This document shows, piece after piece, positions 17,401 to 37,403 of a stretch of 64,000 nucleotides of DNA (positions are counted from its first letter, which is position 1; every line of letters begins with the position of its first letter). Below the pieces are notes generated by a model. It searched no databases and had not been told where the DNA came from. It saw nothing but the letters and a program-made list of their open reading frames with translations. The DNA is from Schmidtea polychroa (taxonomy: Eukaryota), in NCBI GenBank assembly GCA_044892525.1, contig CM097887.1, positions 88,824,397-88,888,396 of the forward strand, read 5' to 3'. The translations under genes were made by a program, and so were the position numbers.

Positions 17401-17801
17401 TTAGCTGTAAAGTAAGAAAGATAACGGTACATGACGAAAGGGATAAAGTTAAAGTGGTTCAGCTCTATTACATTGAATTACTTGAATAAAGACTTGTATA
17501 AAAACTTGTAAAAATCTGAGGATCTAAAGACTGAATTATACAGCGATAAAGTAAATGAAACTTTTCTAAGAGGATGGTAAAATAGGAAAATATTCAAGAG
17601 CCGGCTATCTAACAGCAAAAAAGGAAGGCACGGAGGTCCGCGGTCTGTATGATTTTTTACAAGAAGCCCCTATGGGAAAGATTATATTGTAAAATGAGTG
17701 AGGGATAATGTAATATTAAACAATTAATGTTGTTTTAATATTATGAAAATGTCGTAAAAATAGAATTTGAAAAACGTTTTGTCTTACAAGCTATCCGGGC
17801 A

Positions 17802-18510
17802 ATGGAAATCAACAAGATCATAATTGAAAATGTTGGAAAATTCGATGGCAAAAATACAGATGTGGAAGAATGGTTCGACAAACTCGAAATTACTTTGGAA
17901 GCCAAGAATGTGAAAAATGTCATGAACGTAATGCCATTTTTACTTGAAGGTCAATCTTATGCAGTTTTAAAACAGTTAAAGAAAAGCAGCACGACAATGG
18001 ATTTTTGTATGCTGAAGAAGGAATTATTGAAAACCTTCGGTATGAGCGAGCAAGAAGCTTTTACGAAACTTTTACAGAAAAAGTTATTAATGGGTGATAA
18101 CTTGGATGTCCATGTAAATGAATTAAGGTCACTGTTGGAATGTTCAGGTGATCTACTAATCCGATTTTTTGTAAATAGCTTACCAAGTGATTTGTCAAAT
18201 CAACTAAAGATGTCAACAGCGTCAACAATGAATGAGTTAGTCGCTCAAGCAAAGAAAATCGCAAGTCATCAAATTTATGACAATGAAACGGTTGCAGTAG
18301 TAGTACCAAGATCAGATAGTGGAAGACAAGCCAATCGAAAATGCTATATATGCAATAGTGCTAATCATGTGGTAAGATAGTGTCCAGAAAGACGCAATAT
18401 CAGATGTGCAAAATGCGGTATTATGGGACATATTTCAAGGTTTTACAAGTCGGGAAAAGATCATGGGGCTAGACACAATGTGGAGTCGGGTGTGGCCCCA
18501 AAAATTGTGA
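17802..18510 (+). pseudogene. gag: gag of small Gypsy (capsid plus two CCHC-like knuckles, nonsense codon at 18378)
   Basis: KFDGKNTDVEEWFDKLE capsid start; CYICNSANHVVR*C and CAKCGIMGHISR knuckles. G GGA AAA slippery heptamer at 18452-18458 shifts -1 into the protease frame. Confidence 0.75.
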
Positions 18511-18514
18511 ATAT

Positions 18515-21088
18515 GTGAGACTCCTAAAAGTAAATGGTGATGTAAAAGCATGTTTAGTTGATTCGGGCAGCACTACCACTATAGTAAAAGGAAATCCACG
18601 AAAATCTATGACTGCGGTAGCGATGCTTGATGGTTCAATCATATATGCTGAGCGAAGTAAAGTTGATATATGGGTTGGAGATAAGTTATTTAATATTGAT
18701 TGTTTAATACACCCGAAACTAGTATCCAATTATGATGTAATTTAATAAGTGAATGCTATTAATAGGTTTGGTGGAGTACGATTGAATAAAAAAGCCATAT
18801 TCGGTTGTGAAGAAGCATCTTGTCACGTAGCGTGCTCTAGTAGTGGTATGTCAGAAATATTGAAGGAAAATTTCTCTGCGAGATTTGAAAACGAGAAATG
18901 GATTGTCAAATGGGATTGGAAGTCAGAGCCGCCAAAATATCTACCTAATAGAAATTCAAACTTTTATGATAATTTTAGTAAGGATCAGGAGACAATGCGT
19001 ATATTGAATTCTTGGATATCTAACAGCTATCTAGTTGATTACGACGAGAAAACAATGGGCAAACCGATCGGATCAGTACCTATTTATGGTACAATTCAGT
19101 TAAATAGAGCGGAAGTGCGTCCAGTATTTGACTTTAGGGGTATCAATAAATATATTGATGTATATAGTGGAAATGTAGATATCTGTTCTGAAAAATTACG
19201 ATGATGGAGATGTTTAAGTAAAGAATTTGCAATGTTAGATTTATCTGATGCATATATGCAAATACACGTGGATAAAAGCATGTGGCGATATCAATCTTGT
19301 ATGGTTAATGGGAAGAAATATGCGCTTACGAGAATGGGATTTGGATTGAATATCGCACCAACGATAATGACAGAGATTGTGAATAAAGTATTGAACAACA
19401 ATGAATCAATCAAGAATAGTACAAGTTCATACATAGACGATATATTCGTAGATGAATCTAAAGTTAAAGCAAGTAAAGTAAGTGCAGAAATGCGTAAATT
19501 TGGTTTGATATGTAAAGAAGAAGAAAAGGTCAAGGATACTCTCAGTGTAAGAGTATTAGGTATTGATGTATTTCGAAAGAATAATGAACTGGTTTAGAAA
19601 CAATGGTTGCGGCCAGCTTGCTCATATATCAAGAGGCTATCCAGTGGAAATTGGGATGATTCAATAGAAAATCATATCGTTGACAAAGTAAAATGGTTAT
19701 TAGAAAAAGTGAATGAAAGAGATCCATCGTCAGGTATTTGGAGTGTTCCCAGCAATCAGACAGGCATAATTTGGTGCGATGCAAGTTCGATCGCCATTGG
19801 AATTGTATTAGAAATGGAAGGTTCAGTGGTTGAAGATGCGTGTTGGTTGCCGAAACCTGATGGTTCAAGACACATTAATTTGGTGGAAATAGAAGCGATT
19901 GTGAAGGGTATAAATTTATGTATTAAATGGAATCTAAAGTACATCAAAATTAAATCCGATAGTAAATCAGTTGTGTGTTGGGTTAACAGCATATTATCAA
20001 GCGACAGAAAAATACATACAAAAGCAAATTCAGAGTTGTTAATACGACGAAGGCTGGAGCTTTTAAAAGATCTAGCGATTGAGTATGAACTTAAAATGGA
20101 CATTGAGTTTGTATCTACAGAAAATAACAAGGCTGATGTATTAACGAGAGTACCAGCCAACTGGATGATTATTAAAAAAGAAGTCGCAGATCTAGGCAAT
20201 CAAAAAAGCTCGAAAGATGTGTTATTAGAGATTCACAAGACCTGCCATGTAAGGAAAAATCGTATGCGATTCTTAGTATCGGAAGCGGGGCTACTAAATG
20301 TGGATAATGAGATCTCAGAAATAATGGCAAGTTGTAATCAATGCCTATCAATTGACCCAGCGCCAGTAAAGTGGGAGAAAGGTGAACTAAGCTGTGATGA
20401 AAATTGGTGCCATTTAGCAATTGATGTAGCTAAATTTGCTAAAGATAAATATTTAACAATTATTGATTGTGGACCATCGAGATATGCAATTTGAAAGAAA
20501 ATTAAGAATGTAAATGTAGAAGAGATATGTAATGCTTTAAATGAAGTGATATATGAAAGAGGAGCTCAAAGTGAAATATTATTAGATAATTACTTATCTT
20601 TTAGATCTAGAAAATTTCAAGAATTAGCAGATAAATGGAATGTTGAGTTGGTATTTAGAACAGTGAACCGTCCAGGGGGAAACGGGATCATTGAACGCAG
20701 CCATCGGACAATCAAATCGCTAGCAGCTAGGTCCTCAGGAACAATCGCAGAAGCTGTGTACTGGTTCAACAATACGCCAAACAACAATAATATTTGTCCA
20801 TCTAGAGCCATATTTAGATATAATCCAAAGCTGAATCTGCCAAGCTACAATAAAAAAGAGATAATAATCGAAGCAAAATATTCTGCTGGTGACCCAGTAT
20901 GGATAAAACCGAATTTGAATCAAAAATGCACGGAAAGATGGAAAGATGGACATATCATTAAACCATTATCAAATACAAAATTTTTAGTCAGATGTAATGG
21001 ATACGATATGCTGCGACACGTGGGCGATATTAGAAAAAGAGTTGTTAAAGATTCAGATGAATCTGGTGGAGATGTAGGAATAATGTAA
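18515..21088 (+). pseudogene. pol: pol of small Gypsy (PR-RT-RH-IN), one frame broken by several stops
   Basis: ORF pieces 18515-18745, 18749-19204, 19232-19597, 19607-20494 and 20546-21088 are all in the same frame and carry the catalytic motifs in Gypsy order. Confidence 0.85.
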
Positions 21089-22573
21089 TATTAAACAATT
21101 AATGTTGTTTTAATATTATGAAAATGTCGTAAAAATAGAATTTGAAAAAGTTTTGTCTTACAGTGAAATTTGGAAAGGGATATTTATTTAAAATCGAACA
21201 TATATCTTCTAACAATAGTCCGTGAAACTGTAAGAATGTTAGCTAATTATAGTTCATTAGAGTGACCTCACTTCATACTAGCATTTAACCATTAGATACA
21301 GTATTAAAGTTGATAAAATAACCTAACATACAATGGTTAACCGTTTTTATTCTGGTTTATACTGAAATCACCACAAAGGATATGGTTAAAGTTTGCCTGT
21401 AACCCATCAAATTTATTATGATTTATTTTTTGTTATTGTAAAATTATAATTTTTTATTATTAGAAGTTTAAATCTTATCTAGTTTTTATTTTCAAAACTA
21501 AAAATCCCGAGAATACATGTTACTGATAATACTTGGCTTCAGTAAACCAATTAGAATTTAAATAATAAATTTTTAAATACAAACACAAATTACTAAAAAC
21601 AGTAATTTAATTTAGTGATAAATTCAAATAAAAGAATTTTACTAATTGTAATGAATTAAAAGCAAAATTTGTTTTAATAAATAAGAGGAAATAGAAAAAT
21701 TACAACTTTGAATTTTATTCGGTATTTCTTACTCATTAATCTAATTATAGTAATAGTAATTTTTAATTGCTTTAATTAGATTAATATCTAATTAGTTTAA
21801 ACAAATAATATATAATTAAATGTTTTAATTGCAAAGTTAGAAAATATGAAAAATTTTGCCAGACAAAATTTGAAATTTTTAATATAAATATTTTAAGTTT
21901 CTTGAAAAACTAAATTCCTTTTTTAATATGGAAACCTTTGAGAGGTTTGATAATTCAAAAGTAATAAAGTCCAATGGAGATCATTAAAATTTGTTCAACA
22001 ACACTGGTTCGCCTGAATATTAGGCAGTTCATATTAATTACTTTAATAAAATTATCAGTTCAAAAAATAAAAAATGATTTCAAATAAATCATATAGTTGT
22101 ATCGCTTGACAAATCCTATCTGATGTTTGATTTTACCCAAGAAACCCCTAACTTAATACTATTTAGTCATTTGGTATTATTTTCATCCATGATATGTAGT
22201 TATTAAGACCCACGCGAAGATTTAAAACGTCATGACCAGGTTACTTTTTAATTTGCCATACATTGTACAAATATAAAGACCTGAGTATTTTCAAAATTCT
22301 GAAATTATTTTTATACTTGAAAACGATAAAATTTAGATAAAAAGTTAATAAAATATCTGACAATCATATGGAAATAAAAGTATCTGTGATCTACAAAGAT
22401 CTAAATTGAACTTAGTGATGAAGATTCTTAATTGAGAATGAAAGTGTAATTGTTACATTATGACTGCTGTAATAAAAATAATTCAAAATATCATCTCGCA
22501 AATATAGTGTAATTTTCAAAAAATAATGGCCAATGCAAGAAAATGAACAACAAAAAATTTAACCTTAACATTT

Positions 22574-23576
22574 TGTTGAGGATGCCTAAATAATAATTCA
22601 TGAAGAAATAAATAAAATTACCTGGGGGAAGATCGCCATGACAAACGGGACGATCTATAGAGACTCAGAAAAGAAAACGGAAGTGAAAATAAATCAAAAA
22701 TGAGAAAGAGAAAGGAAATAAAAGTTATCAAACAGAAAAATAAAATCAAGGTCAGTACTAATTAATTAGTACAAAAAGGAAAAGGAATTTTGAAATCAGG
22801 GAAAAAGGAAAACAACAATATCCTTATCTCGACAGCTTGCTGATGATAATAGAATTGATGGGAGAAGGCGGCCAAACAAGAAAGGAAAAAGGGAAAAAAC
22901 AACCTGACAGCGGTCAGAGATAAAAATGGGATAGTCGGGGAAAGCAGGAGAAGGAAAGTGGGAAAACACTTGATTATCTGGAGTGCCACAAGAGAAGCGA
23001 ACTATATAAGGGAAAACTGGTGAACATGAAATTACAACAAAAGAGAGAGACAAGGTGACGCGAAATTGGAAACGCTCTGGAAGACGAATTGAGATACGAT
23101 TTGAGATACGATTTGAGAAAATAATTATTGAAGAAAATCAGACGTCGGACGAAACGTTGTTGGACAAACGATTGTCAAGATAATTGTAAAGGAAATAATA
23201 GAGGAAAATAATTGGAGAAAAGTTGAAGAGAAAAATTAGTTGAATAATAAAACGAAAAGAAGTTATTGATTATTTGAATAAAGTTTGAAAGAAAGTCAAA
23301 GAAAACAACCAGCTCAAAATCCCAGCTTAGAAACCAATCAGTAATTTGTGATCTTTTAATCCGGTGTTATACACAAGTGCTATTCCTCACCGAGTGTTGC
23401 AATAAGCACTGTATAGTCACCCAACAGAGTGTTGAATTTATCGTCAGTGTCAAGTGAAAGTTTATTTGTGATTATCAATAAAGATTTCTATTGTCAAGTG
23501 TTATTTGTGAATTATATAAAGACACGCTTGGAGTCAGAGTAACATTAAATTTTGTCACCAACTCAATAACCCAACA
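22574..23576 (+). repeat. 5' LTR of large Gypsy element
   Basis: Matches 36401-37403; one substitution seen by eye (G22912 vs T36739). TATA-like TATATAA at 23003-23009; AATAAA at 23477-23482. Confidence 0.95.
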
Positions 23577-23581
23577 TATTT

Positions 23582-23599
23582 TGGTGAGCCCGACGTGAT
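23582..23599 (+). promoter_or_regulatory. Primer binding site complementary to tRNA-Trp 3' end
   Basis: TGGTGAGCCCGACGTGAT, 17/18 identical to TGGTGACCCCGACGTGAT (complement of the vertebrate tRNA-Trp 3' end); 5 nt after the LTR. Confidence 0.85.
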
Positions 23600-23798
23600 C
23601 AAAAGTTGGTGAAGAGATTGTGAAAAAGAAAATTGGAAAAATAAAGTGTGTAAATTGAAATTATTAGAGTGATTTTGGAAAGGTAAATTGTTTATTGTAA
23701 TAATAATTTGAGATTTAGATTTTGTGAAATTTGAAAAGAAATAATTTATTAAAGTGAACCGATATTATTTACGAAGCCAGAGTAAAAAGGAAGCTACA

Positions 23799-26597
23799 AT
23801 GAGCAGTGAAGATTTACCAGTTTCAGTTATTAAAGAAAATAATGATTTTGCCAGTTGTCAAAGATTGCCAGTAGAGCAATATGGAGGAGATCCAATTATT
23901 TTTGTTGATTTTATGAGCGATTACTATATGTATGCAACGGCTTATGGATGGTCTCAAGCAATAATGATTCAAAGATTACCCTTATATCTTAAAGGAGCTG
24001 CTAGAGAGGTTTGGCAACAAATCGACAGGAAAACAATCGGCAATGATTGGGCCAAATTAAAAGATGCATTGGCTGCTAAACTTATTGGAGGAGATATAAA
24101 GAGGTTAATGCGTCAGAAATTTTATAATAGAGTTCAAAATCCAAATGAAACAGTGAGCGAATATGCATATCATTTATCGACCCTTGCCAGCAAATCCTTT
24201 GAAGAAGATTCGAAACAACCAGGATTAGCCCAACAGATGCAGGAACTGATTCAAGATCAATTTTTGTCCGGAGTAAATAAAGAAATAAAAACGGCATTAT
24301 GTTTTGTAGAGTATGACAATTTCGACGAACTAGTTAAAAAAGCAATGAAAATCGAATTGAATCTAAAGAGCTCTAAAAATAAATCTGAGGTATTTGCAAT
24401 AATTCCAGTACAAAGAGAGAGATCAGTAACCTCAACCCAAGACAATTGGGAATCAGGAAATAGATTTCAACGATTAAAGAGCCCATCACCAAAATGGAGA
24501 AACGATAATAATATGAACAGAGCAAGCCAAAATTCACCAGGCACTGAGAGAGCTCAAGTTATTCAGTGTGATATTTGTAAGAAAATTGGCCATTATACAA
24601 ATCAATGTTGGTTTAAAAATAATTCTGAAAGAGTACCCAGGAGATTGAGTCCAGATTGGCAAAGAGATAATGGAGGAACGAATTTTCGGAGAGCAATTCC
24701 TAATGTGAAGTCAAATTTTAATGAAGTACAATGTTATCGCTGTGGTAGAAAAGGACATGTTTCTAGAAATTGTTTTTCAAGATCAAGATCACCATCAATG
24801 TCACCATCACCACAAAGAGATAATGTGAATTTAAATGGACAAATTCAATGTCATTTATGCAGAAATTACGGACATATTGCAAGATCTTGTCCCAGGAATT
24901 CCGATAAATTTCAAAAACCGATTTTGAAACGAACAATTAGATTTCAGGATGAAAACCAATCAAAGAATAATGTTGCTTATGTTCAAAAAGATAAATTTAG
25001 AGAAAAAATTGAGAACGATGTCAAACAATTGAATCAAAAATTGAATAAATTGATGGCGAAATTTGAATCAGATGATGAAACAGATTCTCATATGATGACA
25101 AGACGAAAATTGAAGACGGATCAATCAAAACTTGATGATATTACAAGAAACAGAGTTAAAACGGATATGCAAAGTGAAAAGAGTACAATACTTATTGCTA
25201 AGGTCAGGAAATTAGTAACAGAACCTGATGCGAATTCTCAGAAATTGACAGAAGTATTGATGAAGCTAACGGAAATACCGTTGAGTTTAACCAAAATTAA
25301 AACTGTTATTAAACTTTGTACTGAATGTTTTGCAGCAAGTGTGGAAAAGCGAGATGTATTTGAAAAGTATATGAAAGAATTTGGCCAAACTTTACGAAAA
25401 TTCAAATGGTTAGACCCGATATTTATTAAAACAAATACATTAAACGACACCAAATCCGAGTATCAAGTTGAAGCATACGGAAAAATACGCGAGTTGAAAA
25501 GAGAAATAATGTACAAATGTGAAGTTTGGGCAGTAGAACTTGGATTTATGGGCCGAGTGTTGGAAGACGACGAATTTTTGATAGATTGTGGATTAATCCC
25601 CGGCGTTGAAAATGAGATACAAATAGTGAGCATGATTACCAATGAAAAACCAGTCAAATATGATGTCAATAAAATTAAATTTGAATTAAATGAAGCATTG
25701 ATCAAGGGAGATACAGGTGATATTATTGATAAATTGAATAATATTTTGAATTTAGAATTTGAAGTGGAAGATAAATTGAAAATTTTAGATTGTGTCAGAC
25801 CCTATGTAAATTATGATAATGAATATAGTGAAATGATAAAAAAGCTTATTCATAAATTTGGACAAGAATTTAGAGAAAAAGGAGTTTATAATGAGCCATT
25901 TGTGATAATGTTAAAAATAAATGACCAAGAAGTGGAATGTACCAGCGAGCATTGGTGTACGAAATTGAGTACAATACGACGGAGAGCAGCAGAAATTATG
26001 GGCAGTGATGGAATAATTGTATTGAAATACAAAGGTTTTGAGTTAGATGATGATGAGTACTTATTTGATTGTGGCTGTGTACCACGAAAATTTGATGAAA
26101 ATGGATCTTTGGCGAATCAGGAAACATTTATTAATGAGTTAGTTGCGATGAAACAATTTGAATTAAAGGAGGTAGAAGAAAGCTTTAAAATGGAATTACC
26201 AAACTGGAAAAATGAGATAATGAGTAATGATGATGAGATGCACGATGAACAAGAAATGAAAAGAGATGAAATAGAAAATGAAACTGTAGAGATTATTATT
26301 AAAAATGAGATGAAGACTGAAAAAGATGAAATAGAAAATGAAGCGGAACAGATTATTGTTGAAAATGAAATGAGAACTGAAGTTCAAAATGAGGCATATA
26401 TGACCAAAATGACGATTGATAATGATATTAAAGAAAAACAATGCAGAAATTTGTATGAAATAAGATGTAAAATAATACAGAAATTTCAAGAGGAAAAAGA
26501 TCAGAAAGACTCAAAGGAAACTGAGAAAATTGTACGTGCTCTAGTAAACGAATTAATAGAGAGAATTAATAGAGAGAATAGAGAGAATGCAAGTTGA
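23799..26597 (+). CDS. gag: Gag (capsid plus three CCHC zinc knuckles) with a long C-terminal extension holding two ubiquitin-like domains
   Basis: First ATG at 23799. Capsid motifs (LPLYLKGAAREVW, RVQNPNETVSEY); knuckles CDICKKIGHYTNQC, CYRCGRKGHVSRNC, CHLCRNYGHIARSC; Ubl-like segments at about 25419-25628 and 25899-26150. Confidence 0.85.
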   Translation: MSSEDLPVSVIKENNDFASCQRLPVEQYGGDPIIFVDFMSDYYMYATAYGWSQAIMIQRLPLYLKGAAREVWQQIDRKTIGNDWAKLKDALAAKLIGGDIKRLMRQKFYNRVQNPNETVSEYAYHLSTLASKSFEEDSKQPGLAQQMQELIQDQFLSGVNKEIKTALCFVEYDNFDELVKKAMKIELNLKSSKNKSEVFAIIPVQRERSVTSTQDNWESGNRFQRLKSPSPKWRNDNNMNRASQNSPGTERAQVIQCDICKKIGHYTNQCWFKNNSERVPRRLSPDWQRDNGGTNFRRAIPNVKSNFNEVQCYRCGRKGHVSRNCFSRSRSPSMSPSPQRDNVNLNGQIQCHLCRNYGHIARSCPRNSDKFQKPILKRTIRFQDENQSKNNVAYVQKDKFREKIENDVKQLNQKLNKLMAKFESDDETDSHMMTRRKLKTDQSKLDDITRNRVKTDMQSEKSTILIAKVRKLVTEPDANSQKLTEVLMKLTEIPLSLTKIKTVIKLCTECFAASVEKRDVFEKYMKEFGQTLRKFKWLDPIFIKTNTLNDTKSEYQVEAYGKIRELKREIMYKCEVWAVELGFMGRVLEDDEFLIDCGLIPGVENEIQIVSMITNEKPVKYDVNKIKFELNEALIKGDTGDIIDKLNNILNLEFEVEDKLKILDCVRPYVNYDNEYSEMIKKLIHKFGQEFREKGVYNEPFVIMLKINDQEVECTSEHWCTKLSTIRRRAAEIMGSDGIIVLKYKGFELDDDEYLFDCGCVPRKFDENGSLANQETFINELVAMKQFELKEVEESFKMELPNWKNEIMSNDDEMHDEQEMKRDEIENETVEIIIKNEMKTEKDEIENEAEQIIVENEMRTEVQNEAYMTKMTIDNDIKEKQCRNLYEIRCKIIQKFQEEKDQKDSKETEKIVRALVNELIERINRENRENAS

Positions 26598-29025
26598 GAA
26601 ATATGTGAGGAAAATTGCAAAGAAAATTAAAAAGAGATTTTGTGTAGTGTTAAAACAAGCAAAAGAAAGTATGGAATTTTGCGATGATAATGTGATAACT
26701 GAGATGAGGACAAGGAAAATAGATAGAGATATGGTATTAACAATTATGAGTTATATTTTGTTAGAAATCGGAACCTATGATTGCTCAGAAATGGAAAAAC
26801 ATGAGGAAATAATTAAAATGGCGAGTAAAGTTTTACATAAACATGTTGGCAAATGGATAAAAGAGAATGGAGGTTGGGAAAAGCTGATTAAACAAAAAAT
26901 AAAACCAGTTGTGGAATTGAGAGAAAATTATGAAGGGGTCTTGAAACGAAACACCATGAAATTTCCATTTTTAATGTTTATGATTATGATACTATGTGCA
27001 ATTATAACTCAAACGACGTCTTTAATCGCTTACGACTGTTCTCAAACAAAAATGGGAAAGGTATATTCGATGGTAGATATGACAGAATGTCCAGATGCAC
27101 ATCCACTGAGTCTAACAGTGGAAAAGGATGTAAAATACTATGTATATCAAGAGTCTGGATTTAGACATGCCACGGTAAGAGAGTGTATTGTGAAGAGAAC
27201 AAGTTTTGTATTCTATTGTGGCAAATGGAGTCACACATCATTAATTAAAATGTATGCAATACCAAGGCCAGTTGATGTAAATCCAGAAAATTGCATGGCT
27301 GCATTCCAGACCGGAGAATTGAAAATAAGTCCCGAAATTAAATTGAAGGCTAAATTAAATCATGCAATACGAGAAACGATTATTGAAAAAGGGGTGATAA
27401 AGGCCAATGGTGATTGTGAAGGCGAACCATATAAGATGAATGGGCAAATTATTGACAAAGTTGTTGTGATGGAGGAATATTTAACAGAATTGAGAGAATT
27501 TAAAGGAGCTTTTGACGATGATACAGGCAAATTACAAACCCATCCATTTTGTAATATGAAACAGACCAGTTGTCAAACAGGAGAATCGATTTTGGTATAT
27601 GAAGTAAAGAAAAATTTGTGTAACTTGATACATTTGAAATCAATGAGTTTCAGTGAAATGAGTGGCGAACAATTGAGAAATAGACCGGAAAGTCTGAATG
27701 TGGAAGCAAAGCCGGATATGACAGTTAAAATTACGCGATTGAGAAAGAGAAAAACTCCAGTAGTTCTGATGTCAACTTTATTGGACGATGGGATGAGATT
27801 CATACGAAAACGAGTAGTGGATAAGTGCGGCCAAACGGTGTATGAGACGAATTATAAAGGGATTTATGTGTCCAAGAAAAGAGTCGAGGAAGCTCAAATT
27901 AAAATACATAGTACAGATATTAAATTGACAAATTATTTCAATAACAAAATAGATTATCTATTCCACTACAGCCAAAGCATTGTGGAAAATATTTATCGAG
28001 AAATGATATTAAACGATTGTAAATTAAACAAAGAAATATTACGAAATAGAATAGCGATGGCGGTCACAAATCCGAATTTAGTAGCACCTATGTTAATATC
28101 GGAAAACGGTGTATTTGCAAGGATATTTGGTGAAGCGTTGTATAGCTACAAATGCAATGAAATTTCCGTACAAATTACAAAACACGAACAATGCACAAAT
28201 GAATTACAAGTGAGTGTCAATGGTAAACTCAGATTTATGGAACCAATAACTCGGATATTGTTAGAGGAAGACGTAAAACCAAAGGTTTTAAAATGCAACA
28301 GATTACTCGCACCATTATATTGATTAACGTCAGATTCATGGATATCGTTACCAGATCACAAAGGAGTAAAAACTCCAGAAAAGCTAGAATTAACAAAGCT
28401 TGAGTATTTAATAAATTTCACATCATTGGATAAATTAGCACAAACCGGATTGTATTCTCAAGAAGATGTTGAGGAAGCTAGAATGAATTTGTTATTTCCA
28501 TCGAAAAAGGAACGAGTAATAACTGAAATGATTGATACTATACTACCAGGAGGTGAAGGAAAAGTAAACTATGATTATCTATTAACACCAGATCATTATA
28601 AAAAGGCAACGTATAATACGATGAAAAAGATATGGGGAAAATTTATGTTTTTAGGACAAGCGTGTGCGGGATTGATTGGAATTTATGTTATGATAGTGAT
28701 GACAAAGGTAATAATATCTCAAATATTAACTACACACCAATTATATGTTATATCTGGTTGGTCATGGAAATTGATTATTGGATGCATACCGTTCTTGGCC
28801 AGATTTCTGATTACCAAGCATCAATACAAAGAAATGGGGAAAGTAAAATCACGACTAACTAAAAGAAATATTGATTCAAGTTCGAGCAATGGAAGTGGAT
28901 ATGGGGATGATGATAATGATAAACTAAGAGTACCCCCTATGTATTATTATAAAAATAATAAAACAAAAATAAATGATATAAAGGAAAAATCTAAATCTAT
29001 GAGTTTATTACATACAGTACCATAG
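26587..29025 (+). CDS. env: ORF2: N-terminal Bcl-2-like domain, then a signal sequence and chuvirus-like class III fusion glycoprotein; one in-frame TGA at 28321-28323
   Basis: BH2-like WIKENGGWEKL; hydrophobic MKFPFLMFMIMILCAIITQTTS; LIAYDC..YSMVD..ECP, YCGKWSH, CNRLLAPLY, LAQTGLYS, and C-terminal membrane region WGKFMFLGQACAGLIG...GWSWKLI. The frame stays open after the TGA. Confidence 0.8.
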
Positions 29026-29180
29026 GCAAGTGGAACAGACACTTTCAGTCGATTATGTATTCCAAAAACCTTTATTCCAACAGCACCAATATATCCAGTG
29101 GAAAAACTAAAGGAAATGAGGCCAATTGAGAATATTGAATTAACAAATGAGCAAATTATACCGACAAGTGCAGAAATTGA

Positions 29181-29760
29181 AAGGAGAAATATGCTGGGAT
29201 TACCAGGAAATTATGCGCTAATGACAGTCGGAAACAGAGCAGACAACCAAGAATATGGGTACAAGTAAATAAACATAGAGTTGAAGCATTATTAGACTCA
29301 GGTTCGAGTAATACGATATTATCAGACGAAGTGTTGAATTCAGATGAGAAAGCACAAATGAGAAGTACAGAAGAAGTGGTACGATCAATGACAAAATCCA
29401 AACTAAATATTATTGGGCAAATTAGAGTCAAGTTCAATATTGGAAATCAGGAAATTGCTCATGATGTTCTAATAATTCAAAATTGTCCAGTGGAATGCTT
29501 AGTGGGTATGGATGTTTTAGCACAGCTAGAAGGAGTTTGTCTTGATTTGAAAACGGGAAATTTGATTATGGGAGAAACGGGGAAAGCCATTCATGAAACA
29601 GGCGACGTGTTTCTAAACCAAACATTAAGAGTTCCACCTCAAAGTGAAGTTATTTGTTATGTGAATACAATGGGAGTTCCAGATGATGAATTTATATTTC
29701 AACCAAGTGAAACATTAATCAAAAAGTATGATATCCCCATGTACGACGAACTAGTAAGTC
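29181..29760 (+). CDS. pro: Retropepsin-type aspartic protease region (no ATG upstream of the active site)
   Basis: Frame opens at 29181; PRIWVQVNKHRVEALLDSGSSNTILS and CLVGMDVL motifs. The reading frame shifts to the pol frame near 29760. Confidence 0.85.
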
Positions 29761-32718
29761 CAAGACCAATTAATTCCTGTTTATATTACCAACAATAATG
29801 ATAAAGAAATAGCATTAAGACCAAAAACGAAATTGGGAAAGTTGACAAAAATCTTAAAAATGGACAATAAAAGATTACCAAAAAATATAAAAATATACAA
29901 AGAACCTCAAGTAAACAGTAAAGATTTGACCCAAGAGAAAATACAAAAATTTATGAAATTATTGAAAAAATATCAAGACGTCTTTGCAAAACATGAATAT
30001 GATCTAGGAGTTACTCATGTAATTGAGCACGAAATTCCATTAATGGATGAAACTCTAATCAAACTACGACCATACAGAATTCCTTATGCACATCAAGAGG
30101 AAAGTGATAGACAAATAAAGGCGATGAAGGATTTCAATATCATCAGAGACAGTTTTTCACCATTTTCTTCATCTATTGTTGTTGTTAAGAAAAAAGACGG
30201 TGAAATAAGATTTTGTATCGATTATCGAAAATTGAACCAAGTTACAAGAAAGGATACATATCCAATCCCAGTTCCTCAGGAAATGTTCGACAAAATGGGA
30301 GAAGCTCAATATTTTACTGTTATTGATTTAAATAAAGGGTATAATCAATTCAAAGTTAAAGAATCAGATAAAGGAAAAACAGCATTCTCAGATGGAAAAG
30401 GTTTGTATGAATTTAATGTTTTACCATTTGGTTTGAAAGGTGCACCAGCAACATTTCAAAGAGGAATGAATTTTGTACTGAGAGATATCCCACATGCTTT
30501 AGTGTACATAGATGATATTATAATATTTTCAAGTGATTTTGAGGAGCATATGAGAGATGTGGAGACAGTATTTAAACGGCTTAGAGAAGCAAGTCTCAAA
30601 ATCAAACCATCAAAATGTGAATGGGGTAAGTCAGAGGTAGTATATGTTGGACATATTATCTCACGGAGGGGTTTACAACCAAATCCAGATAATGTTAAGA
30701 AAATCCAAGAATATCCTATTCCAAAAAATGTTGATGACGTCAGACAGTTTCTCGGGTTAGCAAGTTATTATAGAAAATTTATTAGAAACTTTGCACATAT
30801 TGCTCAACCATTAACAATGTTATTAAAGAAAACTCTTAAATTTACGTGGAATAAAGCTCAACAAGATGCTTTCGAAATTCTCAAACAAAAACTTATAATT
30901 AATCCAATATTGCGATGCCCAGATTTTACAAAGATGTTCATATTAATGACAGATGCAAGTGGTTTTGCATTAGGGGCAGTGTTGGGGCAAAAGGTAGAAG
31001 GAGAAAAAGATCATGTCATTGCATATGCTAGCCGATCACTGAAGCCCCATGAGAAAAATTATTCAACAATTGAAAAAGAAACTTTAGCTTTGGTATATGG
31101 GATAACAACATTTCGACAATATCTAGTGGGTCCGAAATTTATTGTTTATACAGATCATAATCCGTTACAATGGTTAATGAAACATCGAGATGCAGCAAGC
31201 AAATTGATAAGGTGGTCTATAGCCTTACAAGAATATGATTTTGAAATAAAATACAGAACAGGAAAATCAAACGCTAACGCAGATGCATTGTCAAGGATCT
31301 CAAATGAGGAAATTAGTGTTGACCAGGAAGAAATAAGTTTGAGAGATACAGTATTCGCAGTAATCAAAGCAGTAAACAATATGTCAGAGCTGCAACGAGA
31401 TCAGGAAATGGATGATGAACTAAAACAAATAATCAAACATACAGTGATAATGAAAAAGGACAGTGAATTAAAACAATTAATTGAGGAAAAGCATAAATAT
31501 GTAATCCACAAAGGTATATTAAAGTATATTAAAGGTGATGAATTATTAATAGCTGTCCCAACTAAGCATCGAAATACGTTATTGTTACAATATCATGATG
31601 GAGCATTGGGTGGACATTTATCAGCAAGAAAAACAATGTCACGATTAAAACTAAAGTATTTTTGGAATACAATGGACCAACATGTAAAGTATTGGTGTAA
31701 TACGTGCAAAATTTGTCTAACTCGAAAGAATACAGGAAAGAAAATAAAAGTCCCACTAAAACCAATGCCAATACCAGCCGCGCCAATGGAATTTTCAGCA
31801 ATGGATATTATCGGGCCCTTACCCGAAACTACAAATGGAAATAAATATATTATAGTATTTTGTGATTATTTAACAAAATGGCCAGAGGCGTACGCAATAC
31901 CAAATCAAAAAGCGGAAACAGTTGCTCAAATATTTGTCGAAAAGATTATATTCAGATATGGTGCTCCAAAGAAATTGTTAACAGATCAAGGAACAAATTT
32001 TCAAAGTGATTTATTTAAATCCATTACCGAATTATTTGGTATTTATAAATTAAATACATCACCATATCACCCGCAAACAGACAGGCTAGTAGAAAGATTT
32101 AATGGTACTTTAATCAATATGATCTCATCGTATGTAAATCGGAAACAAAAAGATTGGGACTTATTTATCAAACCATGTCTGTTTGCTTATCGAAATGCAG
32201 TTAACGAGAGTACGGGTGAAACACCTTTTTATTTAATGTATTTGAGACGAAACAATATGCCAATTGACCTGAAATTTCAACCCCCAACGTCTCAATACAT
32301 GGACGTTCCAAATTATAAAGTAATAATGCAGGAACGATTACAATCTGCATGGACTCGTGCGGGGTTAAAAATTAAGTATCGTCAAGAACAATATAAAGAA
32401 AACTACGACAAAAAGGCGCATGAGCACGGAATAAAAATCGGAGATTCGGTATATTTAAACAGGCCGGAGCCAGTAAAGGGCCTATCAATAAAATTACAAA
32501 GACCATTCAAGGGTCCATACACAGTATGTGATGTTACAGCAACTAATTTGAAGTTACGTCCAATGAATAACAAAAGAGCAGAAACAATTATAGTTCATGC
32601 TAATCGATGTAAGAAAGTATCCGAAATAGAGTATCAATTACGATCAAAACAAAAGAAACTTAATGATGAAAAAATTATTCAAAAAAAATTTCAAAAAAAC
32701 CCTACGCCATTGGGATAT
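29761..32718 (+). CDS. pol: Pol: reverse transcriptase, RNase H, integrase
   Basis: RFCIDYRKLN, LPFGLKGAPATFQR, YIDD (30505-30516), TDASG, YSTIEKE, TDHNPL, HDGALGGH..CNTC, MDIIGP, TDQG, VERFN, GPY motif. The frame continues into the next feature. Confidence 0.95.
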
Positions 32719-33900
32719 ATGAACAGAGTTTTATTTATAACTACAGTCTTAATAAATGTCATAGCAAATGCAAGTGGAATAACAATGAATCTACCATATG
32801 CAGTAGAAAAAGTACCCTTATTGGATAAAATTTATATATATTCAACATTTACTAGTATTGTGTGGACATATCACTGTGAAATATCAGAACAAATAGAAGT
32901 TAGTAATTTATTGAACCCTTTCGAACCATTTGTTACGTTGAATTATGAGAAAAGCATATATGTAGCTCGTCGATTGACAGCAAATTACAAATATCCTTGG
33001 ACCATTAAACAATATACGCATCAAACAAATACTACTCAAAATATTTATAACCTTATACAAATTAACATTTGGACAAATGAATGGAGAAATTTAGCTGAAA
33101 TTGAACCGATGATAAATGAAATTCACGTATATTGAAAAGCGGAAGAGCAACAGAAAGTCAGAATTGTTTTTCAAAACATTACGATTGAAACATTAAATAA
33201 AAGAAAATCTTTTGTTAAATACAAAAATTTACAAGAAAATCTCACTTACAGTCTTTCAATACATTATTACGAGAAACTCATTCATGACAATGGGACGTAT
33301 ATGAATAATCAATGGATAGAAGTTCAGAGTCAATATGAAGCAGTACACTTGGTTAACGAAACTAATCGAGTTCAAATAAAAATTGAGAACAATGAAATAA
33401 TTGTGTTACGCCAACCAGGCCTCAGACAAAGGGTAAATATTTTTGTAAATAATAAAATTCAGGTGGTGTTAGACGAATACCAACAAAGAGCAAAATTGAG
33501 TACCTTGAACTCAGTATCTAATCCGAAACCAAGAAATTTCGTGATCAAAATTCAATATTGCAAGCGAAAAGCAAACTCAGATCAATGGCAAGTCACTTTC
33601 ATTGAAAATAGACATATTCATCTTCCTCATACTCAACCCATTGGAGAAATAATAAGTGATCATAATCTAACATTAACCGTAAAACCCTCATGGTCAAAAA
33701 ACGAAAGCTTTTCACTAAACTGTAAAGAAAAATCATCTCATAACAATTGTGTCGAATTGTTATTCATATGTATCATTGTGGCAATACCAAGCGGTATCCT
33801 ACTCATCTACCTTGTTCTAATCTTGAGAAGTAATGACAATGACAATTCTATCTGCGACTATCAATATTCTGAGTCGCAGCAGTTAGAGACATGGGTGTAG
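32719..33900 (+). CDS. Predicted type I membrane glycoprotein, in frame with integrase; in-frame TGA at 33133-33135
   Basis: Signal-like MNRVLFITTVLINVIANA; at least 7 N-x-S/T sequons; FN3-like stretch IHVY*K...KYKNLQENLTYSLSI; TM LLFICIIVAIPSGILLIYLVLIL; short tail. The frame is open on both sides of the TGA. Confidence 0.65.
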
Positions 33901-34068
33901 TAAGATATGATTTCATTGCATGCTATTGATATCGTAAAGTATTTCTTTCTTTCATACCTTTTATAATTACATAAAAATGACTAATAGTGATCTTGTATTG
34001 TGATTATTCGTGATCTAAAATTAAATTATCATTCCTGTAATTTGATTGGTTAAACGATTGCACTACTG

Positions 34069-35574
34069 ATGGGAGAGTTGGGATATAAGAGTATGGTTGT
34101 TAAAAAGAAGAAAACGAAGAAAAACAAAGAATATCAAATGGAGAAAATCAGCAGACCAGCGAAAATATATTCACAGTATCTCAGAGAAAAAAGAAGCCGA
34201 ATAGAGAAGACATATATAATCGAAGAAAATCTGAGAATCCCAAATTGGGCAAGAACAGGCAATGAGAAAATGAGGATATGTCTAATGGAGATCGAATGGA
34301 GATCAAGAATGAAAATAGCCGAATTATTAGTGAGGAAAAGTGATGAGAATTGGGAGATCCACGTATTTAAAGGAATAGTGGAAATCATTAACAATGAAGG
34401 AACCATAACCGGAACAATGCCAAACAATTCATCATGGAAAATTGATAAAGAAACATGGCATAAACATATGCGAGCGGCGAATGGAACCGCGTGGTTAGTA
34501 TTAGAATGCCGCAGTAAAATGCCCACAAGTAACGCGGTAGAAAGAATCATCTCGATGGAAGAAGAAAATACCTTGCTCCCGATTACTGAAGAAATGTTGA
34601 AACACCGAAAGTCATTCCTGAGAAAATATTTAACCACTGAAGAAATCCAAAAAAATATAATATTCATGGATGCCGAATATGGAGTAAGTGAGGACAATAG
34701 AATGATCCCACTAGCGGTATGCCTCATCGAATATACCGGGAAAATAATCTATAATGCTTTGATAACTCCGAGAGAAAAAATAAAAAACTATGTTACACAG
34801 GTTCACGGCATTACTGAGAAAATGTCTAGGAACCAAGAAGACCAATATGAGAGCCAAAGGAAAGTTCAGGAACTAACAGCACGAAAAATATTGGTAGGAC
34901 ATGATCTACAAAATGAATTAAGGTATAGTGGAGTTAACCCAAATGATTTATGGGAAATTCGGGATCTAGCAGCAGCCCAAGCTCTAACGAAAAGGAAAAT
35001 CACAAAGAATGGGCAATGGTACAAATTGTCGATAATTGCTCAAGAAATATGCCAAATATCAATGCAAAAGGGAACGCACTCGGCAAGAGAAGATACGGAT
35101 GCAGTGAGACGAGTTTATCTGGCATTGGAAAGCGATTGGGAAGATGATATAAAAGTGCCAACACGGATATCTCACTCCCTACAAGAGTATAGAACTCGCC
35201 AACTAATGATGAATCAAAAAAGGGAATATAGTAAACTCAAAATCCCGAAAAAACCACAAGAGGAAAAAGCTGTGGAAATGCAAGAGATGGAAATAAATCT
35301 TCATTCCATCGAATCAATGAAAACCATCAAGAGATATAAAGTAACGATAACAATGGAAGAGGAATTAAAAATGGCGGGGAAAATGGAGCTTCGTATAAAG
35401 AGAATGGCAAAACGAAGACTCAAAGATATGGAAACTCAAACGGTAACTACGGAAACTTCGGTGGGAAATACAATTATCATCAACGGAGAAGAATGGAAGC
35501 TCAAAAAAATCTTAGCCACTTATCAAAGAGAAGATGAAAAGATAAAAATTACAAAGTTACCCGACAGAAGATGA
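34069..35574 (+). CDS. DEDDh 3'-5' exonuclease (REX4/ISG20-like) with an unknown N-terminal domain
   Basis: Exo I IFMDAEY (D at 34669), VTQVHGIT, Exo II ILVGHDLQNEL, IRDLA, Exo III QKGTHSAREDTDAVRRVY; Lys-rich N-terminus KKKKTKKNK. Intact 501-codon ORF. Confidence 0.85.
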   Translation: MGELGYKSMVVKKKKTKKNKEYQMEKISRPAKIYSQYLREKRSRIEKTYIIEENLRIPNWARTGNEKMRICLMEIEWRSRMKIAELLVRKSDENWEIHVFKGIVEIINNEGTITGTMPNNSSWKIDKETWHKHMRAANGTAWLVLECRSKMPTSNAVERIISMEEENTLLPITEEMLKHRKSFLRKYLTTEEIQKNIIFMDAEYGVSEDNRMIPLAVCLIEYTGKIIYNALITPREKIKNYVTQVHGITEKMSRNQEDQYESQRKVQELTARKILVGHDLQNELRYSGVNPNDLWEIRDLAAAQALTKRKITKNGQWYKLSIIAQEICQISMQKGTHSAREDTDAVRRVYLALESDWEDDIKVPTRISHSLQEYRTRQLMMNQKREYSKLKIPKKPQEEKAVEMQEMEINLHSIESMKTIKRYKVTITMEEELKMAGKMELRIKRMAKRRLKDMETQTVTTETSVGNTIIINGEEWKLKKILATYQREDEKIKITKLPDRR

Positions 35575-36386
35575 ATAATTGTAATAAATAAATAAAATTT
35601 ATAATTCGTAATTACTTTATTTTTTTTGTACCATAAAAATCTTTTATCAAATAAATAATAGAATAATAAAATAGCAAAGGCAAAAAAAAAAAAATTAATT
35701 AAATCATAAATATAAGTTGAAAATTTAATAATATAATATAGTAGAGTGTAATAAAAATTTCAATACTAATACAATTGTAGTAAGAACCCTACGGGAGCTA
35801 CTCAAATAAATAAAAATGAATAAATAAATATATATAATTCGGAATTAATAAAAAGGCCTTGAAGTTTCCAGATCACGAACTTCGGGATCTGAAGACTTCA
35901 TGGCAAAATTACCTAGCCGCCTGCAGCATGGCGTAACCAGCGTGCAAGGTAATTTGGAAAAGACAAGATAAATAATAAACCCTATATAGAGAGGAAGAGG
36001 CATTATTACATAATTATTATTTCAATTAATTATTATTATTGTCATTATTGATTAATTATTATTGTTATCANNNNNNNNNNNNNNNNNNNNNNNNNNNNNN
36101 NNNNNNNNNNNNNNNNNNNNNNNNNNNNNNNNNNNNNNNNNNNNNNNNNNNNNNNNNNNNNNNNNNNNNNNNNNNNNNNNNNNNNNNNNNNNNNNNNNNN
36201 NNNNNNNNNNNNATAGAGGATATTGATATGTATTAAAGTAACAGGGGGATTAATGTAATGCGCAATAAAATCAAACAACTATGGGAAGGGATAATTATTC
36301 TATTTTGGGGATTTTAAAATGAAAGAGGTAGCTAACAAAATAAATAGATTTCAAATCTTAATTTATTTCGAGGACGAAATTTTTTT

Positions 36387-36398
36387 AAAGGGGGGAGA
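36387..36398 (+). promoter_or_regulatory. Polypurine tract
   Basis: AAAGGGGGGAGA, 2 nt before the 3' LTR. Confidence 0.85.
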
Positions 36399-36400
36399 TA

Positions 36401-37403
36401 TGTTGAGGATGCCTAAATAATAATTCATGAAGAAATAAATAAAATTACCTGGGGGAAGATCGCCATGACAAACGGGACGATCTATAGAGACTCAGAAAAG
36501 AAAACGGAAGTGAAAATAAATCAAAAATGAGAAAGAGAAAGGAAATAAAAGTTATCAAACAGAAAAATAAAATCAAGGTCAGTACTAATTAATTAGTACA
36601 AAAAGGAAAAGGAATTTTGAAATCAGGGAAAAAGGAAAACAACAATATCCTTATCTCGACAGCTTGCTGATGATAATAGAATTGATGGGAGAAGGCGGCC
36701 AAACAAGAAAGGAAAAAGGGAAAAAACAACCTGACAGCTGTCAGAGATAAAAATGGGATAGTCGGGGAAAGCAGGAGAAGGAAAGTGGGAAAACACTTGA
36801 TTATCTGGAGTGCCACAAGAGAAGCGAACTATATAAGGGAAAACTGGTGAACATGAAATTACAACAAAAGAGAGAGACAAGGTGACGCGAAATTGGAAAC
36901 GCTCTGGAAGACGAATTGAGATACGATTTGAGATACGATTTGAGAAAATAATTATTGAAGAAAATCAGACGTCGGACGAAACGTTGTTGGACAAACGATT
37001 GTCAAGATAATTGTAAAGGAAATAATAGAGGAAAATAATTGGAGAAAAGTTGAAGAGAAAAATTAGTTGAATAATAAAACGAAAAGAAGTTATTGATTAT
37101 TTGAATAAAGTTTGAAAGAAAGTCAAAGAAAACAACCAGCTCAAAATCCCAGCTTAGAAACCAATCAGTAATTTGTGATCTTTTAATCCGGTGTTATACA
37201 CAAGTGCTATTCCTCACCGAGTGTTGCAATAAGCACTGTATAGTCACCCAACAGAGTGTTGAATTTATCGTCAGTGTCAAGTGAAAGTTTATTTGTGATT
37301 ATCAATAAAGATTTCTATTGTCAAGTGTTATTTGTGAATTATATAAAGACACGCTTGGAGTCAGAGTAACATTAAATTTTGTCACCAACTCAATAACCCA
37401 ACA
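36401..37403 (+). repeat. 3' LTR of large Gypsy element
   Basis: Copy of 22574-23576, followed by the ATTT TSD. Confidence 0.95.

Follow-up and report, generated by a model that had tools for sequence, protein, structure and literature searches.

The Bcl-2-like stretch found in the window (the whole 64,000-nucleotide stretch of Schmidtea polychroa DNA analysed) is an internal domain of a retroelement polyprotein, with no separate gene of its own. It shares homology and fold with Bcl-2 proteins, has a fixed position in the polyprotein, is fused in frame in sister copies, is conserved in four element families and has a hydrophobic segment behind it. Our best explanation, held with moderate confidence, is that it is a divergent Bcl-2-fold polyprotein domain of host origin that, in unbroken copies, would likely be placed at the cytosolic side of the ER through the env signal sequence and likely damps host cell death; the window copy is frameshifted within the domain.

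The domain is carried by a Ty3/gypsy retroelement of 14.8 kb (22,574-37,403) with the 4-bp target duplication ATTT at both flanks and the polyprotein order gag - ubiquitin-like - Bcl-2 - env - pol (Table 1). With its LTRs, its PR-RT-RH-IN order and a gB-type env between gag and pol, it is a GAG-ENV-POL errantivirus. The gag frame comprises a retrotransposon gag, three CCHC knuckles, the ubiquitin-like domain, an acidic linker and helix 1 of the Bcl-2-like domain; the ubiquitin-like match is under the Pfam cut-off here and likewise in a sister copy (E 4e-5). Env in the window copy is broken by a stop at 28,321-28,323. Pfam scans of seven frames of the window element gave no MATH, BIR or ankyrin match. 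A dUTPase-like domain between PR and RT, which the Burro review discussed below detected by HHpred, gave no Pfam match at E 0.05. No RNA run is listed as containing the element; contigs of four sequencing runs, of unknown or guessed type, cover it and are uninformative on expression or splicing.

Table 1. Features of the window copy of the element (all coordinates are window positions).
Feature	Coordinates	Strand	Basis or remark
5' LTR	22574..23576	+	1003 bp, TG...CA; 1 mismatch in 1003 against 3' LTR
Gag frame	23745..26597	+	gag PF03732 E 2e-8; PF00098 E 9e-8
Ubiquitin-like domain	25419..25598	+	PF00240 E 5e-4, under cut-off; frame residues 559-618
Helix 1 (BH4 position) of Bcl-2-like domain, gag frame	26517..26555 (about)	+	sister frames; helix 2-19 of sister-copy model
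Frameshifted stretch splitting Bcl-2-like domain	26555..26590 (about)	+	shift absent in 19 of 19 sister loci
Helices 2-8 of Bcl-2-like domain	26587..26886	+	Pfam, PDB sequence matches, alignments, fold matches
BH1 position DRDM	26722..26733	+	in helices 2-8 part
BH2 WIKENGGW	26854..26877	+	in helices 2-8 part
Hydrophobic internal env signal sequence, predicted membrane tail of Bcl-2-like domain	26956..27021	+	hydropathy
Env, class III fusion glycoprotein (chuvirus / herpes gB type)	27022..28875	+	PF24664 E 4e-54, 7e-28
Aspartic protease frame	29181..29798	+	PF00077 E 8e-9
RT, RNase H, integrase, C-terminal extension	29758..33135	+	Pfam scan
Accessory frame with DEDDh-type exonuclease domain	34054..35574	+	PF00929 E 3e-5, over cut-off
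3' LTR	36401..37403	+	purine tract before it

The original prediction placed the whole domain at 26,587-26,886. The peptides it quoted all lie in the forward frame of that interval, which does hold helices 2-8, but the domain starts further 5', with helix 1 (ETEKIVRALVNEL) in the gag frame. The frame runs unshifted from helix 1 into helix 2 in all 19 sister loci, and the frameshift is peculiar to the window copy. Because that copy is frameshifted inside the domain, the ATG at 26,587 results from the break and is no true start; as the start of a separate Bcl-2-env gene it is ruled out by the unshifted frame of the sister loci. The internal status of the domain and the broken copy were absent from the prediction, as were the env signal sequence as a tail and the published Burro arrangement.

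PF00452 was the best of three Pfam matches to the Bcl-2-like stretch of the window (E 1.3e-4), at 22.8 bits, under the curated cut-off of 31.4 bits. Scores were 23.2 for a sister copy, 18.0 for family B, and 29.7 and 32.4 for family C, and family D gave no PF00452 match at E 0.05; the cut-off was passed by one of the six copies scanned (one of two from family C) and not by the window's family. In a sequence search of the PDB, the best 60 of 99 matches were all Bcl-2-family chains (best E 1.5e-3). The predicted likeness of the helix 6-BH2 segment to Bcl-xL amounts by manual count to 10 identical residues out of 26 and, with the Pfam and PDB matches, goes beyond chance. The BH2 pattern W-x-x-x-x-G-G-W is present, with W, I, G, G and W invariant in 30 of 30 rows; in family D, Y replaces the first W.

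NWGR is the BH1 signature of canonical pro-survival Bcl-2 proteins, and L-x-x-x-G-D is the BH3 motif of the pro-apoptotic Bax and Bak. The element domain was noted to lack both, and does. DRDM aligns with NWGR of Bcl-xL and of the host paralogues, which bears out the proposed BH1 placement; this position reads DRDV in family B, NRDK in family C and DQNR in family D, so that the NWGR arginine is replaced by M (A), V (B) or K (C) and matched by R in family D, and the glycine is gone in all four families. The BH3 position holds VRKIAKKI, compared with LASIAD in the Bak-like gene of the host. Families A and B have 39 residues, and family C 34-37, between the BH3-position leucine and BH1, against 42-51 in six host or Polinton proteins, and with so short a stretch a groove wall may be missing.

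That WIKENGGW resembles BH2 by chance is barely credible and is disfavoured by the family C Pfam score and by the VIA-align fold matches given below. The window fragment, which lacks helix 1, does fold poorly by itself (pLDDT 55, pTM 0.34), its match to Bcl-xL reaches only E 1.0, and a search of 1.84 billion representatives gave no true relative, the lone match being an unrelated coiled-coil protein. Yet profile, structure and family evidence spans helices 1-8, and even the poor fragment model puts Bcl-xL first. The domain profile, used to look for longer proteins, found none among 7,987 candidates, which is weak evidence.

AlphaFold modelled the domain, from 30 element-only rows, as a six-helix bundle (pLDDT 66, pTM 0.54) with helices 2 and 3 fused and weak at residues 51-53; in this model of moderate quality, the predicted helices pack in a bundle about a hydrophobic helix 5 at the centre. 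All 43 PDB matches listed by Foldseek are of the Bcl-2 family (best TM 0.58-0.60, probability 1.0, E 0.016), neither of two Foldseek searches of the element-only model reaching E < 0.001. With VIA-align, the best 34 of 48,161 chains are cellular or viral Bcl-2-fold proteins, the top match having Z 9.0 (rmsd 3.9, 118 residues aligned), only middling for a helical bundle, and the first unrelated row Z 5.6; over all fold comparisons the best Z is 9.0-9.3, at an rmsd of about 4 and with 114-118 residues aligned. The Pfam, Foldseek, VIA-align and tree evidence together supports the prediction's claim of a divergent host-derived Bcl-2-fold domain in a retroelement.

Poxviral A52, N1, B14 and A46 are among the VIA-align matches (Z 5.7-6.6). 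The domain could likewise be a groove-less Bcl-2-fold scaffold outside apoptosis, binding innate-immunity adaptors or ER partners as these vaccinia proteins do, along with the ubiquitin-like cargo of the element and, in family D, its TRAF-type cargo. Such non-groove functions are listed in a review (PMC7022251), and the loss of NWGR and GD and a helix 3-4 region with 3-17 residues fewer than its host and Polinton counterparts are in keeping with them. BH3-binding homologues, however, outrank the non-groove poxviral proteins in the fold search, BH2 is invariant and the tail-like hydrophobic segment is kept, and we consider a scaffold possible but unlikely. Binding of BH3 ligands persists even in viral Bcl-2 proteins that have no detectable identity (PMC7022251). 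For the family A domain paired with a 34-residue BH3 segment of the host Bak-like gene, complex prediction scored 0.02, with the alignment unused and the partner fold uncertain, and speaks neither for nor against binding.

The domain stands immediately in front of the env signal sequence in four element families of this genome (family A, to which the window element belongs, and families B, C and D, the last of Burro type). Family D also has MATH/TRAF and IAP genes. The domain tree is unrooted and without non-flatworm named Bcl-2 proteins, since the last outgroup search gave only three proteins; in it the domains of the four families form one side of a starred branch (95/96), and A pairs with B, as in the RT tree. 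Between these two families identity is 38% in the domain, 70% in env and 82% in RT, the domain thus diverging faster.

The best host match to the four-family profile is Schmidtea bcl2-like (UniRef C9WPR4, P0002) with its counterpart L032, scoring 26.1 and 24.4 bits against at most 10.4 for other paralogues; hhalign gave a probability of 91.6 for the element domain and Schmidtea bcl2-like, which itself has RWSR in place of NWGR. The proposed phylogeny likewise placed this protein closest, but the grouping has a support of only 88/86, and AU tests did not reject three other donors (Bak, bcl2-2 and L028; p-AU 0.13-0.21). By sequence the closest host gene is Schmidtea bcl2-like, a candidate donor. 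The host gene has an intron after BH2, whereas the element domain has none, and its protein has a longer helix 3-4 region. Free-standing Bcl-2-like genes occur in Polintons of this genome, the closest host bcl2-like gene among them.

A further reading is a single capture, by a retroelement lineage, of the planarian's own pro-survival bcl2-like gene, whose tail was then dropped, the Env signal sequence becoming the new anchor; the same cut would send Env into the ER and plant a death blocker on that membrane. With Polintons of the same host also having taken that gene, unrelated mobile elements would have it as a target in common. We regard this fuller account as doubtful; if true, a bcl2-like gene would be a common target in a stem-cell-dependent animal.

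The hydrophobic segment behind the domain has a best 15-mer hydropathy of 2.83, and only one such segment occurs in the 1091 residues of a sister frame. It begins 28 residues past GGW in family A, 22 in B and 50 in C; the corresponding distance is 25 for Schmidtea bcl2-like and 14-22 for the Polinton copies. The signal sequence is internal, with no methionine before it in 9 of the 21 copies of family A and in all 7 copies of family B; the ATG at 26,956, missing in these numbers of copies, is ruled out as a conserved env start. Judged from hydropathy, on which the predicted cleavage and topology at the junction rest, the env signal sequence would likely give the Bcl-2-like domain its membrane tail. 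In unbroken copies it would likely hold the domain on the cytosolic ER face, and a signal peptidase cut after the hydrophobic segment would leave that segment to anchor the upstream protein by its C terminus, in the manner of host Bcl-2 proteins. The anchored domain would then likely damp a host cell-death pathway during particle making.

Within families A, B and C, dN/dS of the domain was 0.27 (16 copies), 0.38 (6) and 0.19 (8), values biased down because copies were chosen as best-scoring and stop-free. Neutral simulations gave medians of 0.61-0.67 and 2.5% bounds of 0.36-0.41, so that A and C fall under the neutral bound and B sits at it. The linker upstream had a similar dN/dS (0.21-0.47); env values of A and B were set aside (dN 0.2-0.3, probably from frame-shifting copies). 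A neutral relic, open after capture only through being in frame between gag and pol, would account for the eroded signature residues and the family B value, and position by itself forces an open frame. We judge it very improbable, given the dN/dS of A and C, where second codon positions are the least variable, and the persistence of BH2 among families that share only about 50% identity in RT-RH.

Constraint not above that of the linker, rapid divergence beyond the core and BH2, and a site that all four families keep constant, after Gag and ahead of the env signal sequence, could also reflect structural reuse, as a membrane-proximal spacer or a matrix-like tether from the Gag precursor to the Env membrane with no role in host death. 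This seems improbable to us: adjacent cargo in related elements targets death and ubiquitin pathways, and the free-standing Bcl-2-like genes of Polintons suggest a benefit from a host-directed function.

To our knowledge, retroelements seldom carry death regulators. Bcl-2-like cargo in planarian retroelements is already known, and the presence of the motif has been published for Burro elements. These giant gypsy-like elements of Schmidtea mediterranea (Burro / GYPSM1) carry the Ubl-BCL2-env order (PMC6431247, citing Grohme 2018 and Jurka 2007). As described there, they share with the window element a Gag with three CCHC knuckles and ubiquitin/SUMO-like, BCL2-like and mononegavirus-like env parts in frame before the protease. 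They differ in exceeding 30 kb, against 14.8 kb here, and in their MATH/TRAF, BIR and ankyrin cargo, of which Pfam finds none in the window element, which has a DEDDh exonuclease frame instead. Their review confines mechanism to 'meddling' with apoptosis and ubiquitination (PMC6431247). Fold, anchor, donor and function of the domain are unaddressed in the literature examined.

Planarian bcl2-1 RNAi leads to systemic cell death (PMC6970515, citing Pellettieri 2010). Should the domain be functional, producer cells could be kept alive by their integrated element in an animal for which loss of bcl2-1 is lethal; as a natural domain of 130 residues, it makes the question directly testable.

Viral Bcl-2 proteins (KSHV KsBcl-2, grouper iridovirus GIV66, poxvirus F1L/M11L and adintovirus Bcl2) likewise keep the Bcl-2 fold at 5-20% identity with eroded BH motifs. 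They are, however, free-standing genes of DNA viruses with tails of their own, whereas here a retroelement polyprotein domain has the env signal sequence as its putative tail. Adintovirus Bcl2, already on record (PMC8502044), was match 9 in a BFVD fold search. Among errantiviruses, Smed_errantivirus_1 and _2 (PMC13524379), of the GAG-ENV-POL HSV/gB type, have the order, env type and length (about 14.8 kb) of the window element. The main text of that paper contains no occurrence of Bcl, apopto-, ubiquitin or Burro and does not discuss the domain. By eye, 73 of the first 94 listed residues of the Smed_errantivirus_1 env match the window Env.

The window contains an LTR element whose two 1003-bp LTRs differ by a single mismatch and which is flanked by a 4-bp target duplication. 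Its Pfam order is gag, CCHC knuckles, a ubiquitin-like domain, the Bcl-2-like domain, a class III fusion env (an env gene between gag and pol), protease, RT, RNase H, integrase and a DEDDh exonuclease frame. The peptides quoted in the original prediction were all found in the window sequence, and its naming of the domain as Bcl-2-like was correct, with the Pfam Bcl-2 profile (PF00452), PDB sequence matches and fold comparison in agreement. The PF00452 match of the window fragment had an E-value of 1.3e-4 but scored under the cut-off; all 60 PDB sequence matches listed (the best 60 of 99) were Bcl-2-family chains. A search of the same genome with the domain gave 150 scored matches among 1130 candidates, falling into one set of ~55-93% identity and a second of ~40%. 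The start at the ATG at 26,587, however, did not hold. In 19/19 sister loci the Gag linker reads on in frame through a helix lying before that position; one of these loci has a stop in BH2 and one a stop upstream. The domain is therefore ~130 residues long, internal to the polyprotein and split in the window copy.

Coordinates of the elements and genes described
Feature	Location	Strand	Evidence
LTR element with Bcl-2-like domain	window 22,574-37,403	+	LTRs, target duplication, Pfam
Accessory frame with DEDDh-type exonuclease domain	window 34054-35574	+	Pfam
Small decayed LTR-type element	window 17701-21154		79-bp direct repeats; gag-, protease-, RT-, RNase H- and integrase-like frames
Polinton Bcl-2-like gene	L071:4858-5202	minus	genome scan
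Polinton Bcl-2-like gene	L074:4706-5161	plus	genome scan

For structure prediction, 30 of 36 element domains were aligned, leaving out three duplicates, one domain with a stop and two whose start motif was missed by the script; host sequences were excluded to avoid circularity. The resulting AlphaFold model has six helices (pLDDT 66, pTM 0.54); the window fragment without helix 1 folded poorly. All 43 matches listed by Foldseek against the PDB belonged to the Bcl-2 family, none reaching E 0.001, and named Bcl-2 homologues occupied most top ranks in a viral library, again with E above 0.001. In VIA-align (48,161 chains) the predicted model had Bcl-2-fold proteins as its first 34 matches (best Z 9.0, rmsd 3.9, 118 aligned), the first unrelated chain appearing at Z 5.6, and a second structural comparison gave Z 9.3 for Bfl-1/A1 and Mcl-1. 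Taken alone, a Z of 9 is moderate for a bundle of helices; the fold call draws its strength from sequence profile and structure pointing to the same family.

A genome-wide Pfam scan (150 scored of 909 candidates), with follow-up retrieval of loci, located the domain directly before env in four element families, A (the window element), B, C and D. Family D resembles the published Burro in its cargo: its polyprotein includes MATH, ankyrin follows integrase, and it has genes for TRAF and IAP. In the domain tree the eight element domains tested fell on one side of a starred branch (95/96), with long branches flagged. Families A and B pair with each other in the domain tree and again in the RT tree, which fits a single capture followed by vertical descent. 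Between families the domain has diverged faster than env and RT. Within families dN/dS was 0.27, 0.38 and 0.19, compared with medians of 0.61-0.67 under neutrality, from non-independent pairs of copies chosen as best matches; family B lies at the neutral 2.5% bound, and the linker upstream has a dN/dS similar to that of the domain.

Besides host Bcl-2-family genes, the same genome holds two free-standing Bcl-2-like genes, each present in multiple copies and Polinton-borne as judged by their neighbours (integrase-chromodomain, packaging ATPase, protein-primed polymerase B and TBP). The closest host gene for both Polinton families is the bcl2-like L032; their genes score 37-83 bits against it and its S. 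mediterranea counterpart P0002 (UniRef C9WPR4), and no more than 16 against the other paralogues. Scored with a profile built from the four LTR families, the values were 26.1 and 24.4 bits for L032/P0002, 18-22 for the Polinton genes and 10.4 or less for other paralogues. The tree grouped the element domains with L032/P0002 and the Polinton genes at 88/86 only and AU tests did not reject three other donors, so that this host gene is a lead to the donor. Loci L071-L077 represent two Polinton/Maverick families, each with a free-standing Bcl-2-like gene that has its own hydrophobic tail and lies near a TBP-like gene. The host is a planarian, two of its genes matching named proteins of Schmidtea mediterranea (87% and 99%), and seven near-identical host bcl2-2 copies lie in one region (L021-L027; G000 C4, ~89.95-90.83 Mb).

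BH2 (WIKENGGW in the window copy) is invariant in the 30 element rows. BH3 binding depends centrally on the Gly-Arg pair of BH1; the glycine is gone in all four families (DRDM in the window copy) and three of them have also lost the arginine. Compared with host and Polinton proteins, the element domains have a shorter helix 3-4 region. A groove-less scaffold role is an unlikely reading of the domain, and a role in particle assembly is less probable still. After BH2, at the distance of the host protein's tail, comes a strongly hydrophobic segment; a sister frame of 1091 residues has no other of this kind. Its place before the env ectodomain and the frequent absence of a methionine before it point to an internal signal sequence of env. 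Cleavage after this sequence would leave the upstream protein with the segment as its tail, which would hold the domain on the cytosolic face; that a domain so anchored binds BH3 helices we rate at about even chances.

The Bcl-2-like domain in the element is real and already published in kind; its function is predicted. Burro elements are reported to carry a BCL2-like motif, preceded by a ubiquitin/SUMO-like domain and followed by env, whose link to apoptosis was called worth testing (PMC6431247); Bcl2 is described in adintoviruses (PMC8502044); and 14.8-kb Schmidtea GAG-ENV-POL elements close to the window element are listed in PMC13524379, whose main text does not mention Bcl-2. A literature search of incomplete coverage found neither a functional study of the domain nor an anchor proposal.

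Three frameshifts (near 26,560-26,597, 29,180-29,270 and 29,760-29,800) interrupt the window copy, and stops occur in frame at three further places (28,321, 29,023 and 33,133). These six breaks in the internal frame exceed the load expected of an insertion as young as its LTRs indicate; the element may therefore be a defective copy mobilised in trans, or its LTRs may have been homogenised. After the 5' LTR, a primer-binding-site-like stretch (23578-23600) is a candidate that we take to resemble the tRNA-Trp 3' end. At ~25890-26100 there is a second ubiquitin-like-looking repeat, without a Pfam match at E 0.05, in which LKYKGFELDDDEYLFDCG echoes FMGRVLEDDEFLIDCG of the first ubiquitin-like domain. 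The post-integrase frame (~32800-33900) has a second hydrophobic segment, ~350 residues with no match in the Pfam scan and a final transmembrane-like stretch, and is possibly a second surface protein; the family B frame likewise terminates in a hydrophobic stretch.

The small LTR-type element upstream is separate from the one carrying the domain. Two overlapping GC-richer frames of 381 and 408 aa at 43895-46206, without a clear match in the Pfam scan, look by eye like a broken DNA-transposon transposase. Of the 150 scored BIR matches in the genome, 149 look like one repeated family (L090-L099, L102, L107-L112); in the copies examined, which belong to Burro-type elements, a BIR-RING (IAP) gene follows a TRAF gene on the 3' side of pol.
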